Below, piece by piece: positions 54,751-59,026 of a DNA stretch of 64,000 bases. Source of the DNA: Gammaproteobacteria bacterium. Lineage in GTDB: Bacteria; Pseudomonadota; Gammaproteobacteria; UBA4575. The position numbers were made by a program, and so were the translations under genes. Location of the stretch: contig CBDCUI010000007.1 of the NCBI GenBank assembly GCA_965222615.1, positions 512,001 to 576,000 on the forward strand, read 5' to 3'. The number at the start of each line of letters is the position of its first letter. Positions within the stretch are counted from its first letter, which is position 1. The notes beneath the pieces were generated by a model that saw only the letters and a program-made list of their open reading frames with translations, ran no database searches and had not been told where the DNA came from.

Positions 54751-55428
54751 TTAGGGCAAAGTAGGTGGCGGTGGAGGAGGTGGTCGTTGTGGGAGCTTAG
54801 TATTGGTCGGGATATTAAACGAGTTGCTGCCATCACCACTATTGCCTTCATTGTTATCACCGCCTTCACCTCCGTCGTTAGCTGAATTAACAGTATTCTG
54901 CAGACGTGAATAGCGGTGTAATGTGAAACTTACCGGCTCAGAGCTAATTAAAGTACGGCCATTGCGAGCCACGATCGTTGCCTTTACTACATGGGTGCCT
55001 CGATCAACATTTTTTACCGTTACACTACCTTCGGTACCTTTGTAGACTTGTTTACCTCCAAGTATCACAACATATTTGTGACCTCGGCGTGTGTTCAGTG
55101 CCGGGCTAGCTTGAAAGGTAATATTCACTACACCTGAGTTATCACGAATACTCGTATCATTTCCTGGCGCAGTGATGGTTAAAGCTTGATAACCATTATT
55201 CTCTTTTTGTGTAGAGGAGCTCGATGTTGAGCTTGGCGAAGTGGTAAGTGGCTTGGTTTCAATTAATGTAGGTAATTTATCGGTCTTCACCTCTTCAGGT
55301 TGTGCGCATTCAGTAGGATTGTCGGTATATATGGTGTTGCCATCCTTATCTTTGCAGGTATAGATACGTGCCTGAGCGATGTTTACACAGACAATAACGA
55401 CTAGTAGTAATAACAAACTTCCACGCAT
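54751..55428 (-). CDS. DUF4124-domain secreted protein with Ig-like C-terminal part
   Basis: Signal peptide, IYTCKDKDGNTIYTDNP, DRGTH; usual position between glnA and ntrB; Gly/Asn and poly-Pro tail. Confidence 0.75.
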   Translation of the reverse strand: MRGSLLLLLVVIVCVNIAQARIYTCKDKDGNTIYTDNPTECAQPEEVKTDKLPTLIETKPLTTSPSSTSSSSTQKENNGYQALTITAPGNDTSIRDNSGVVNITFQASPALNTRRGHKYVVILGGKQVYKGTEGSVTVKNVDRGTHVVKATIVARNGRTLISSEPVSFTLHRYSRLQNTVNSANDGGEGGDNNEGNSGDGSNSFNIPTNTKLPQRPPPPPPPTLP

Positions 55429-55579: not shown

Positions 55580-56989
55580 TTAGCAGCTGTAGTACATATC
55601 AAACTCAATCGGATGGGTAGACATGCGTAAGGCAGTGACTTCATCCATCTTTAAATCGATATAGCCATCAATGCAGTCATCTGAGAATACACCACCAGCT
55701 TTAAGAAAGTCGCGATCGTTATCCAGTGCTTCCAATGCTTGATCGAGTGAAGCACAAACCGTTGGAATTTTTGCTTCTTCTTCAGGCGGCAGATCATACA
55801 GATCTTTGTCAATTGCTGGGCCTGGATCAATCTGATTTTGAATCCCATCTAACCCCGCCATTAACATCGCAGCAAACGTCAGGTATGGATTGCCCGTAGG
55901 ATCACCAAAACGAACCTCGATCCTGCGTCCTTTTGGATTACTCTCATAGGGAATACGAATGGATGCCGAGCGATTGCGCGCAGAATATGCCAGCATTACC
56001 GGCGCTTCAAAACCTGGAACCAGTCGTTTGTAGCTATTGGTACTAGCATTAGAGAATGCATTGATTGCACGCGCATGTTTAATAATGCCGCCGATATAAA
56101 ACATGGCCGTTTGCGAAAGATTACCGTATAGGTCCCCTGCAAATAAATTATCACCATCTTTGACTAAAGACTGATGTACATGCATGCCACTGCCATTGTC
56201 ACCAACGATAGGTTTGGGCATAAACGTAGCGGTTTTACCATAGTTGTGCGCAACATTGAGTACGACATATTTTAAAATTTGGTTCCAGTCTGCACGCTTA
56301 GTCAGGGTGTTATAAAGAGTACCAATTTCGCATTGTCCGGCTGTGCCCACCTCGTGGTGATGTACCTCAACTGTCACACCCATTTCTTCTAATACCTGGC
56401 ACATGGCCGAACGCAAATCTTGTAATGAATCCACTGGAGGCACTGGAAAATAACCGCCTTTAACGCCTGGGCGATGTCCAATATTGCCTTCTTCAAATCC
56501 CTTGTTTGAATTCCAAGCCGATTCATCCGAGTCAATGGCATAGGAAGCACTGGACATTTCATTCAACCATTTGATGTCGTCAAACACGAAAAACTCAGGC
56601 TCAGGGCCAAAGTTAGCGGTGTCGGCAATGCCTGTTGAGCGCAAATAGGCCTCAGCCCGTTTTGCTACCGAACGAGGGTCACGACCGTAACCTTCCATAG
56701 TAGAAGGTTCAAGAATATCGCAGCGTAGAATGAGTGTGGGGTCACTGAAAAACGGATCTATTACCGCCGTGCTTGGATCCGGCATTAATATCATGTCGGA
56801 CTCATTAATTCCTTTCCAACCTGCAATAGAAGAGCCATCAAACATTTTGCCTTTTTCAAAAATATCCTCTTCGATGACTGTAGCAGGTACAGAGACATGT
56901 TGTTCTTTACCTCGTGTATCAGTAAATCGAAAATCAACGAATTTAACATCGTTGTCACTCATCATCTTCATTACATCGCTCGCGGACAT
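55580..56989 (-). CDS. glnA: Glutamine synthetase type I
   Basis: [27 protein letters not shown], adenylylation site DLYDLP. Confidence 0.99.
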
Positions 56990-57073
56990 TAGGTTTCTCC
57001 TTAGCTTTTCGACTCGAATGTTATTCTTATGGTCGTGGTTAATTGCTAACCACGTACTCTCGACATCCTCTAA

Positions 57074-57090
57074 AGCACATTACGTGCCAG
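57074..57090 (-). promoter_or_regulatory. sigma54 promoter of glnA
   Basis: CTGGCACGTAATGTGCT, GG-N10-GC. Confidence 0.88.
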
Positions 57091-57173
57091 TAACATTGGA
57101 TGCACTTTATTGAGGCCAGGGCGGCATTATACGCGGCTTGCAGGCGATAGAAAGATCAATAAAGTAGGTTATT

Positions 57174-57212
57174 TGCACCAGGATAGTGCTTTATAAGCAC
57201 CAGAACAGTGCT
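57174..57212. promoter_or_regulatory. Tandem NtrC enhancer sites
   Basis: TGCACCAGGATAGTGCT and AGCACCAGAACAGTGCT, about 110-150 bp upstream of the predicted glnA start site. Confidence 0.88.
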
Positions 57213-57565
57213 TGTTGTTTGGAATTATTCTGCAGCTCTATAACACAAACGCCAAACTTACACGTTGAGCTTTAGTGAACAATGGAACCCTTGTTCATGG
57301 ATTTTTCCTACACCTCGACTTAGTCAAACATCGAGGACATAAACGCAAATCAATACAAGACTGGAGCATTAACTGCTGAAGAAATTGAACTTAAAAAAGT
57401 AGATATACATCACATCGGCAATGCCGAAATTTGTCACCAAAGGCCAAATTCTGGGGACAAAATTGGTCCAATTTGCGACTAAGGGTGTTTGTTAGCAAAT
57501 GCTAATACACACTTAACCTACCCTATGTCAGTAAGTTAATTACACTACTTCAAGTCGCCAAAAAG

Positions 57566-57582
57566 CTGGCATAGCCCTTGCT
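57566..57582 (+). promoter_or_regulatory. sigma54 promoter of the GGA-rich RNA
   Basis: CTGGCATAGCCCTTGCT, GG-N10-GC; first AGGGA motif lies just after the predicted +1. Confidence 0.78.
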
Positions 57583-57592
57583 CAAATAGCTA

Positions 57593-58030
57593 GTAATAGG
57601 GACGTTTTTATTTGCCAGGGATTGGCGAAACTATTTTAGACAAGGAGGTCAACATGGTCGGCAACACGGACGTACTCACAACATTATATGTTGTATGGAT
57701 CGCCGCTAGTGTAGCAGCGCTGGCTTGGGCCTATCGCGACACAGTGAAACAAAAACTTTGTGGCGTAAAAAAAGGCGCTTAAACACTAACAAGGATTCAT
57801 GGTGATAAGTGTTGAGCTTATCACGATGTGTAAGGATACGGACTTGTATGCAAGTGATACGGATATCTACTTTGCAAATCAAGTCACCATATTTAAGGAA
57901 TTTGCTAATGGTATGGATACCATGGCAAGCAAGGAAGCAACTGAATAGCTCATGCATCAGGAGAGCTTTTTACTTTAAGTCTTAGGGATGAGAGCTGCGT
58001 GACAGGGACGTCAACTCGCAGCTTCTTCAT
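57593..58030 (+). ncRNA. CsrB/Rsm-like CsrA-titrating RNA (candidate dual-function RNA)
   Basis: 15 GGA (14 ANGGA) on + strand versus none on - strand; many in short hairpin loops; ends in AGCTGCG...CGCAGCT hairpin plus pyrimidine tail. Confidence 0.72.
57654..57782 (+). CDS. 42-aa single-TM small protein (not in the ORF track)
   Basis: SD AAGGAGGT just upstream of ATG; MVGNTDVLTTLYVVWIAASVAALAWAYRDTVKQKLCGVKKGA, hydrophobic helix then basic tail. Confidence 0.65.
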   Translation: MVGNTDVLTTLYVVWIAASVAALAWAYRDTVKQKLCGVKKGA

Positions 58031-58114
58031 TCAAACTTCAATATATTCATTCATATGCTGGTCGCAGGACGGACGCATCGCTATACTCACGCTGCGTCAT
58101 TTGCCAGCAAAGAC

Positions 58115-59026
58115 ATGCCAAAGCCTCGATCAACACAAACTCAGATATCTTTTCAAGATCTAGTGCATAAACTTGAACAGTTTTGGGCTGCTCAGGGCTG
58201 TGTAATTGAACAACCGTATGACTTGGAAATGGGTGCAGCAACGTTTCATCCCGCCACATTTTTACGGGCTCTTGGACCAGAGCCTTGGCATGCTGCTTAT
58301 CCACAACCTTGTCGTCGCCCGACCGATGGACGTTATGGAGACAATCCAAATCGCTTGCAGCGTTACTTTCAGTTTCAGGTAATTTTAAAACCCTCACCAG
58401 ATAATATTCAGGATCTCTACTTAGAATCACTAATCAAATTGAATATTGATCCTCTGGTTCACGATATCCGTTTTGTCGAGGATAACTGGGAATCTCCAAC
58501 CTTAGGAGCATGGGGACTAGGCTGGGAAGTTTGGTTGGACGGCATGGAAATCTCTCAATTTACTTACTTTCAACAAGTGGGGGGATTAGATTGTAATCCA
58601 GTCAGTGGAGAAATTACCTATGGACTAGAACGTATCGCCATGTATTTACAAAACAAGGACAGCGTTTACGATTTAATTTGGACACAGCGGCAAGGTAAAG
58701 ACATAAGCTACGGAGAAATTTATCAACAAAATGAAAAAGAACAATCCGCCTATAATTTTGAACATGCCGATACAGAATTTTTATTCGCATCTTTTGATGC
58801 TCACGAAAAAGAATGCAATCAGCTTGTTGAGCTAGAACTTCCTATTGCAGCTTATGACCATGTATTAAAATGTTCACATGCATTCAATTTATTAGATGCG
58901 CGACAGGTGATTTCCGTAACGGAACGACAACAATATATTTTACGAATCCGTCGTTTAGCACAAGCCGTTGCAACAGGTTATTTCGAAAGCCGTGAAAACA
59001 TAAGCTTTCCTTTACTCAACAAATAA
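58115..59026 (+). CDS. glyQ: Glycine--tRNA ligase alpha subunit
   Basis: FQDL...[39 protein letters not shown]; start placed at ATG 58115. Confidence 0.98.

Follow-up and report, generated by a model that had tools for sequence, protein, structure and literature searches.

The window analyzed here, a 64,000-nucleotide (nt) stretch of a Gammaproteobacteria genome of the UBA4575 lineage (contig CBDCUI010000007.1, positions 512,001 to 576,000), contains between glnA and glyQ a gap of 1.1 kb that holds a small open reading frame (ORF) followed by a GGA-rich RNA. We propose, with a probability of roughly 0.55, that the two belong to one sigma-54-dependent bifunctional RNA that acts both as the mRNA of a membrane peptide and as a decoy for CsrA, with synthesis of the peptide itself under CsrA control. 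A single sigma-54 transcript of roughly 430 nt, spanning approximately positions 57593-58022 of the window, would carry out both jobs. Its first 190 nt would be the mRNA for a 42-residue single-pass inner-membrane peptide, and its last 240 nt a Csr/Rsm-type decoy in which about ten A(N)GGA motifs, most of them in hairpin loops, would capture CsrA dimers and relieve CsrA control over target mRNAs. CsrA would probably also block peptide synthesis until the RNA exceeds free CsrA, because the ribosome-binding site sits in a hairpin with an A(N)GGAG hexaloop, and another hairpin bearing GGA precedes it by about 25 nt. Transcription would rely on sigma-54 and an enhancer-binding activator acting at a conserved upstream block with an IHF-like bend, and not on a GacA/UvrY-type regulator. 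From the sequence and its conservation we infer that both parts are co-transcribed, that the RNA binds CsrA and titrates it in trans, and that the ORF is translated and repressed at its Shine-Dalgarno (SD) sequence; the inducing signal and any processing are likewise inferred.

The comparison set was assembled from a DNA search of 41 related genomes, which recovered the region in 8 of them, and from a species scan (one genome per species, 185,579 species), which contributed 16 more loci, all from metagenome-assembled Gammaproteobacteria or 'Thiotrichales'. Removal of six duplicates left 18 distinct loci, identified by L-numbers. In addition, 56 genomes of the family, whose genera are labelled g1-g11, were searched with profiles and with a covariance model (hereafter R1) built on the last 103 nt of the GGA-rich domain (57922-58025).

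A GGA-rich domain with the anatomy of a CsrA decoy

The domain presumed to sequester CsrA extends along the plus strand from position 57783 to 58022 and contains ten GGA triplets past the stop codon (57793, 57834, 57840, 57861, 57897, 57915, 57933, 57960, 57986 and 58006). Hairpins expose GGA at 57857-57868 (gata-CGGA-tatc), 57908-57923 (atggta-TGGA-taccat) and 57980-57993 (tctta-GGGA-tgaga), and a terminal nested hairpin, GCTGCG-tGACAgGGACGTCa-CGCAGC followed by CTTCTTCATTC (57994-58022), presumably marks the 3' end as a weak terminator. The core of this terminal element, GCTGCG...GACA(N)GGA(C/T)GTC...GCAGC, is invariant in all 18 loci. In g7-type loci it is followed by a canonical GC-rich hairpin with a T run, which the window does not have, and a terminator scan returned no site at the terminal hairpin of the window. 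Other GGA elements are also conserved in position: the first motif, A(A/C)GGATTCA, begins 8-10 nt past the stop codon, and it is joined by GACA-AGGA(T)-TGTC, GC-AAGGA(A/T)-GC and CTTAGGGA(A/T)GAG. The stem of one hairpin covaries (GGTA/TACC, GTGGCA/TGCCAC, TGTAACTA/TAGTTACA, ACTC/GAGT) while its GGA loop is kept.

The raw number of GGA triplets is not unique to this region, since the glyQ coding sequence reaches 16-17 per 450 nt against 15 here. What sets the region apart is the density of the A(N)GGA/AGGA motif, with 11 copies in 57826-58075, the maximum of all 250-nt segments on both strands of the 3.1-Mb genome. Placement of the triplets in the window RNA is equally distinctive: 8 of 15 GGA fall in loops closed by local stems of at least 4 bp, where shuffles average 2.6 (0 of 200 shuffles reach 8), and the RNA folds with a z-score of -4.65 (0 of 100 shuffles as good). 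The same pattern extends to the comparison set, where 8-13 GGA follow the stop codon in all 18 loci. Over its 17 distinct transcripts the 3' region has a mean of 10.8 GGA, whereas dinucleotide-preserving shuffles average 6.2. GGA is predicted to be unpaired with a probability of 0.73, compared with 0.37 for other bases, and hairpins with stems of at least 4 bp hold a mean of 8.6 GGA in their loops, versus 3.0 in shuffles. In 14 of these 17 transcripts the loop-placement count is reached by at most 3 of 200 shuffles.

A second GGA-dense non-coding stretch was observed elsewhere in the genome (G000:C9:80180-80429, minus strand; approximately 781-1030 of L037), with 8 A(N)GGA per 250 nt. It adjoins an apparent small DNA-binding gene and has no Rfam match; because it was found in none of 25 relatives, it is probably strain-specific.

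Sister RNAs lacking the open reading frame

Searches with R1 returned one match per genome in 20 of the 56 family genomes, encompassing all those searched of g1, g2, g6 and g9 together with 15 of 15 from g7, and no match in g3 (13 genomes), g8 (16), g5 (3), g10 (2), g4 or g11. The genes glnA and glyQ adjoin in the genera that do not carry this RNA as well. The gap between them measures about 350 nt in g3 and g4, where it contains no plus-strand sigma-54 box, and about 770-870 nt in g8, where it contains one. A DNA search with the g8 gap located this sequence in 12 of 16 g8 genomes and in the one g11 genome (L060, L062-L074). In the 11 g8/g11 loci that were aligned, a sigma-54 box, the IHF-like TCAGTAAGTTA and an upstream block resembling that of the window precede some 250-300 nt in which 7-12 GGA are displayed in hairpin loops; the end of this RNA reads CTGTCAAGACA(N)GGATGTCTTGTGACAG. 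A profile of the peptide found nothing there (best E-value 0.75 in 18 loci) and recovered 20 of 20 in the positive control.

With its filters switched off, R1 recognized the 3' end of the sister RNA in 12 of 12 loci, on the correct strand, with scores of 15-22 bits (E 0.001-0.05, over 38 kb). This weak but consistent similarity suggests that the sister RNAs and the window RNA share descent, and the g8/g11 RNA appears to represent a separate new family of sponge-like RNAs. Genera with the ORF (g1, g2, g6, g7, g9) and genera without it (g8, g11) would offer a natural with/without experiment on how a sponge gains or loses a coding function.

CsrA-type sites at the ribosome-binding site

The SD sequence of the small ORF (GGAGG, 57644-57648, 5 nt before the ATG) lies within AAGGAGGT (57642-57649) and is part of the plus-strand hairpin gac-AAGGAG-gtc (57639-57650). 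The motif GGAG[GC]TCA is invariant in the 18 loci, and the stem that closes the A(N)GGAG hexaloop has 3 bp or more in 17 of 18 orthologs, reaching 5 bp or more in 13 of 18 (AUGAC-AUGGAG-GUCAU). Further upstream in the 5' untranslated region (UTR), a second plus-strand hairpin with GGA in its loop, tttgcca-GGGAT-tggcgaa (57611-57629), is predicted in 18 of 18 orthologs with differing stem sequences; this stretch contains GGA in 17 of 18, in most of them within a hairpin loop located about 25-30 nt upstream of the SD hairpin. In known repressed leaders, two such GGA sites at comparable spacing are bridged by a CsrA dimer. An attenuator at the 5' UTR hairpin was also considered and dismissed, its T-rich tail not being conserved.

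The conservation of these leader sites would also suit an ordinary CsrA-regulated mRNA, whose 3' UTR hairpins act in cis only and have a negligible effect on the CsrA pool. Titration does hinge on the abundance of the RNA, which leaves this explanation some room, but we regard it as unlikely. The 8-13 sites per RNA are in the range of dedicated sponges, RsmW and RsmY having 7 (PMC4950607), and they make up the densest A(N)GGA stretch of the genome. Moreover, the sister genera retain the GGA RNA and its promoter with no ORF to regulate.

A conserved sigma-54 promoter with a presumed upstream activator block

A sigma-54 promoter, TGGCATAGCCCTTGCT, with GG at -24 and GC at -12, lies on the plus strand at 57567-57582. 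It agrees with the sigma-54 consensus, TGGCAC-N5-TTGCW, and TGGCA[CT]-N5-TTGCT is present in all 18 loci, 79-94 nt ahead of the ATG. Transcription is likely to start near 57593, because this is the usual spacing between a sigma-54 box and its start site. The strict pattern is rare, with only 24 matches genome-wide, several of them ahead of flagellar genes and one ahead of a hydrogenase gene. The genome encodes rpoN (C8:315614-316090) and six proteins with a Sigma54_activat domain (132-248 bits), one of which is NtrC (730.7 bits against a cut-off of 558.6), encoded in the glnA-ntrB-ntrC cluster.

Two further plus-strand elements precede the promoter. An IHF-like site, TCAGTAAGTTA (57528-57538), retains TCA.T..GTTA in 18 of 18 loci, a motif resembling the IHF consensus. 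Beyond it, a 50-nt block at 57422-57471, about -171 to -122 from the presumed start, is conserved in 18 of 18 loci and features GTCACCA and the palindrome-like GGACAAAATTGGTCC. We presume that it is a sigma-54 enhancer (upstream activating sequence) bound by an activator. An nhmmer profile of the block produced a single match in the genome (E 1.7e-14; next best 0.62), and because the block is unique in the genome, a regulon cannot be derived from it. NtrC was considered as the activator, glnA-ntrBC being the neighboring cluster. Canonical NtrC sites are found 320-420 nt upstream, and NtrC acting at a distance from a shared enhancer is possible. Orthologs of one other activator occur in the RNA-bearing genera, and also in g11 and half of g8, a distribution that is compatible with a role at this promoter but not diagnostic. 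A search for GacA-type boxes (TGTAAG-N6-CTTACA, allowing at most 3 mismatches, across -400 to +250 of the 18 loci) yielded scattered matches in 6 of 18 loci, none at a conserved position.

Elsewhere in the genome, the strict sigma-54 boxes at G000:C8:872719-898552 precede flagellar-type genes (rod, hook-associated and FliL-like, judged from their N-termini only), and the one at C9:114134 precedes a gene resembling the small subunit of [NiFe]-hydrogenases (likewise from its N-terminus only). Two sigma-54 activators flank the flagellar cluster and one more lies beside the hydrogenase.

Linkage of the open reading frame and the GGA-rich domain

In the 20 genomes with an R1 match the peptide is encoded immediately upstream of that match, without exception. 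A whole-genome search with the peptide profile found it once in each of these same 20 genomes; the sole other match is partial and at chance level (E 0.008). A scan of the interval between the ORF and the 3' domain identified neither a terminator-like nor a sigma-70-like site. These features favor a probable single transcript for the ORF and the GGA domain.

Two independent, merely adjoining genes, with the GGA small RNA expressed from its own promoter in or just after the ORF and no functional coupling, would account for part of the same evidence. A GGA domain forms a unit by itself in the ORF-less RNAs of g8 and g11, a weak pair resembling -35 and -10 elements (TTGTGG ... TAAACA) is readable across the end of the ORF, and an internal -35 element is discussed for RsmW too (PMC4950607). 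The would-be -10 element, however, overlaps the stop codon and varies among loci (TAAACA, TAAATA, TAGATT, TAAAAG), third codon positions vary freely at the end of the ORF, and a promoter scan of 56900-58200 revealed no sigma-70-like site. The first conserved GGA motif leaves only 8-10 nt after the stop codon, and the two parts occur together in 20 of 20 genomes. The best argument for the GGA domain being the tail of the ORF transcript comes from the sister loci themselves, since there a homologous promoter of the same sigma-54 type precedes the GGA RNA directly, with no ORF in between. Uncoupled neighbors are, on this evidence, quite unlikely.

CsrA as the presumed ligand

The sequence context of the 222 GGA triplets located outside the ORF body is markedly biased, with Y at -3 for 81% of them, A at -2 for 79%, A directly before the triplet for 53%, U at +3 for 43% and G at +4 for 50%; 92% read A(N)GGA or AGGA. 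The resulting context, YA(A)GGA(U)G, matches the CsrA-binding consensus obtained by systematic evolution of ligands by exponential enrichment. CsrA is encoded by a single-copy gene (G000:C8:997499-997654; 110.9 bits against an equivalog cut-off of 73), and csrA is present in 52 of the 56 family genomes, among them 18 of the 20 that bear the RNA, the other two being fragmented assemblies.

The GGA hairpins could instead serve another ligand, either a different RNA-binding protein or a base-pairing target, in which case the Csr/Rsm likeness would be convergent. The RNA matches no Csr/Rsm model in Rfam and is not accompanied by a GacA-type box. This alternative is nonetheless very unlikely, given that the CsrA consensus is reproduced here in short hairpin loops and that csrA accompanies the RNA in every genome other than the two fragmented assemblies.

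The small open reading frame encodes a predicted membrane peptide

The small ORF (57654-57782, plus strand, with TAA at 57780-57782) encodes the 42-residue peptide MVGNTDVLTTLYVVWIAASVAALAWAYRDTVKQKLCGVKKGA. Its size alone is no better than chance, with 52 ORFs of at least 25 amino acids overlapping 4.5 kb here; its conservation is what identifies it as a gene. The tblastn search found the peptide in 8 of 8 related genomes with the region, at 67-95% amino acid identity versus only 69-80% for the DNA, and 18 residues are invariant among the 8 sequences. Across the 18 loci the frame is open throughout, at a length of 39-43 codons, and the other five frames are closed by stops in most of them. 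The numbers of variable alignment columns at codon positions 1, 2 and 3 are 19, 11 and 32 of 37, and mean nonsynonymous change (pN) is 0.112 versus 0.499 for synonymous change (pS), for a pN/pS of 0.22. Third positions vary from one end of the ORF to the other, also near its 3' end, and this speaks against an embedded DNA or RNA signal as the source of the conservation. By these comparative measures, the 42-codon ORF is a genuine coding gene under purifying selection at the protein level. That the ORF is untranslated and conserved for RNA structure or DNA signals is scarcely credible, even for a peptide with neither known family nor name in public collections and an exact sequence never called as a gene, when change is biased to third positions with a pN/pS of 0.22, the ATG is invariant with GGAGG at 5 nt, and the frame is open in 18 of 18 loci with the others closed.

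The peptide is predicted to be a single-pass inner-membrane protein with its N-terminus outside and its C-terminus inside. The best 19-residue Kyte-Doolittle segment covers residues 7-25 (mean 1.92), the hydrophobic stretch is flanked by 0 K/R on its N-terminal side and 5 on its C-terminal side, and an AlphaFold2 model consists of one helix (residues 3-41; mean predicted local distance difference test score, pLDDT, of 79). Comparison with Pfam and NCBIfam assigned it to no family, yielding only chance-level matches (FtsL, E 0.04-0.09; CysG_dimeriser, E 0.002 in 3 of 8). In the ESM Atlas the top score of 0.84 is under the meaningful level, and a cluster labelled 'transporter small subunit-like' (0.77) offers no more than a lead. 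A search of 1.84 billion representative proteins yielded only 3 related clusters at E <1e-10, their members without names, and two weaker matches are long unrelated proteins; the exact window peptide is not among 15 billion collected proteins and has never been called as a gene there.

A 42-nt unitig over the core of the ORF (57714-57755) was detected in two metagenome runs at depths of 22.6 and 33.6, compared with 2 to 30.7 for the flanking contigs. The higher depth fits several co-occurring relatives that share the conserved ORF core.

A preliminary description of this stretch, made from its sequence, had pointed to an ATG at 57654 opening a 42-codon ORF, to a peptide with one transmembrane segment and a basic tail, to an SD sequence forming the loop of GAC-AAGGAG-GTC, and to ten more GGA past the stop codon in what it took to be a CsrB-like RNA. 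The ORF is present and ends at 57782, its coding conservation is borne out by the tblastn search and the pN/pS, and the hydropathy, charge distribution and helical model agree with the proposed topology. Likewise, the hexaloop hairpin is found at 57639-57650 and in 17 of 18 orthologs, the ten GGA were located from 57793 to 58006, and the sponge anatomy is conserved, with 8-13 GGA, most of them in hairpin loops, and csrA encoded in the genome. Its account of ORF, SD and GGA was thus correct and its interpretation finds support in part, but it overlooked the sigma-54 promoter and the ORF-less sister RNAs.

Weighing the bifunctional reading

Several observations tell against a bifunctional sigma-54-dependent sponge mRNA. 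At the ribosome-binding site, the SD stem of the window is only 3 bp long, and GGA is to be expected in any strong SD (GGAGG) anyway, so that its presence there is weak evidence when taken alone; it is the conserved hairpin presentation that adds weight for a CsrA-type site. In the 3' domain, the GGA count of L005, L030, L032 and L033 is reached by 42, 19, 12 and 8 of 200 shuffles, respectively, and the loop placement of L002, L032 and L005 by 56, 22 and 11 of 200. The window gave 0 matches in Rfam at gathering score and only chance-level ones at E up to 10, the top one of which, SpR20, is simply the sigma-54 box. The Rfam models for CsrB and PrrB_RsmZ gave 0 matches in the genome, and the RsmY model gave only sub-threshold ones, located on terminators at gene ends. 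The upstream block is unlike the canonical GCAC-N7-GTGC NtrC sites beside glnA. A weak internal promoter or a processing site may separate the ORF from the GGA domain. Finally, no clean T run follows the terminal hairpin, which leaves the position of the 3' end in doubt and may allow read-through into glyQS.

If the RNA is indeed bifunctional, it might further operate as a self-timing device with two outputs, in which a sigma-54 activator switches on the RNA, the decoy first buffers free CsrA, and the RNA's own CsrA-clamped ribosome-binding site is freed only once the decoy is in excess over CsrA, so that the membrane peptide acts on a sensor kinase or transporter partner, locking in the response or feeding back on it. 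We put this extension forward as a tentative possibility.

Genomic context of the locus

The flanking genes are glnA (55580-56989, minus strand; glutamate--ammonia ligase, 861 bits against a cut-off of 845) and glyQ (58115-59026, plus strand), with glyS next downstream. The minus-strand gene order is glnA, a 225-amino acid ORF, ntrB and ntrC; no NCBIfam family matches the 225-amino acid ORF (54751-55428) with an E-value of 1e-10 or better. The promoter of glnA is of the textbook sigma-54/NtrC type, with a minus-strand sigma-54 box, TGGCACGTAATGTGCT (TGGCAC-N5-GTGCT; 57074-57089), and GCAC-N7-GTGC NtrC sites at 57175-57189 and 57197-57211, all kept in 17-18 of 18 loci.

A -10-like GCTATACT (58080-58087) lies between the terminal hairpin and glyQ and is conserved in the loci whose alignment extends that far, 7 of the 8 aligned. 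Because this conserved element precedes glyQ, glyQS probably has its own promoter. The RNA was also considered as a leader of glyQS, which was ruled out by the canonical terminator that lies between the RNA and glyQS in g7-type loci.

Comparison with known systems

The CsrA sponges of the textbooks do not code for protein and are activated by regulators of the GacA type. The window RNA shares with CsrB, CsrC and RsmX/Y/Z the many A(N)GGA in hairpin loops or single strands, the terminal hairpin and a genome that encodes CsrA; unlike them, it has no Rfam match and no palindrome resembling the GacA box, and it combines a sigma-54 promoter with a conserved coding ORF. Because the Rfam and GacA-box tests failed, it is not a member of a curated Csr/Rsm family, yet by the anatomical features compared here it would be classed as Csr/Rsm-like. 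Its presumed control region recalls that of the sigma-54-dependent regulatory RNAs GlmY, Qrr, CrcZ and NrsZ, in which an upstream activator site and an IHF bend accompany a -24/-12 promoter. Of these, CrcZ also acts as a sponge for a protein, and none of the four is known to be a sponge for CsrA. A literature search turned up no sigma-54-dependent Csr/Rsm RNA, which is not proof of absence.

The closest counterpart in layout is RsmW of Pseudomonas aeruginosa. RsmW is described as an RNA that binds RsmA, carries 7 GGA and does not respond to activation by GacA; it lies downstream of the 74-codon pa4570 with no terminator in between and is expressed from the pa4570 promoter (PMC4950607). A 2026 preprint reports that RNase E-dependent cleavage releases it from the 3' UTR and that iron limitation induces it (bioRxiv 10.64898/2026.09.03.749296). 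Judged by these accounts, the two systems have in common a sponge directly behind a small ORF with no terminator in between, GGA presented on stem-loops and no activation by GacA. They differ in that RsmW is iron-regulated, likely via Fur, whereas the window RNA has a sigma-54 promoter and a presumed upstream activator block; that pa4570 (74 amino acids) is not described as a membrane peptide in the RsmW source, whereas the window peptide is a predicted 42-residue single-pass protein; and that the window RNA presents its SD as a CsrA-type hairpin and carries 8-13 GGA against the 7 of RsmW.

A coding mRNA that is repressed by CsrA and also titrates it has been described in Campylobacter jejuni in the form of the flaA mRNA, which encodes flagellin (PMC4894983). 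The window RNA would resemble flaA in joining coding with CsrA titration. The flaA mRNA is long, its product is an abundant structural protein, and it binds CsrA on its leader with FliW as the main antagonist, whereas the window RNA would be a multi-site decoy attached to a tiny ORF. Short transcripts that unite a regulatory RNA and a small ORF are represented by SgrS/SgrT, Spot 42/SpfP and SR1/SR1P, and the absence of the ORF from some homologs, reported for SgrS in a 2025 review of dual-function RNAs, is mirrored by the window RNA; according to the same text, these RNAs act by base-pairing, unlike the CsrA sponge proposed here (PMC12612679). The preliminary description had stated that no peptide-coding CsrB-type RNA was known. 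RsmW/pa4570 and flaA are precedents that this statement missed; it agrees with the review in so far as the latter names CsrA-binding small RNAs only as a place where small ORFs might be discovered in the future (PMC12612679).

If the bifunctional reading is correct, a new sponge family controlled by sigma-54 and an enhancer-binding activator would feed a different class of signal into the Csr network, and in one clade the sponge would also encode a conserved membrane peptide whose start site is seemingly gated by CsrA. The carriers known so far are mostly uncultured Gammaproteobacteria, which confines immediate bench work to heterologous systems, and with the ORF-less sisters one can test directly whether a regulatory RNA gained or lost its coding function. 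Side by side, RsmW/pa4570 and the window locus suggest that the design of an mRNA ending in a sponge tail recurs, a design to which the locus described here would add a new combination: a new sponge family, sigma-54 control, a conserved predicted membrane peptide and a CsrA-type site at its translation start.

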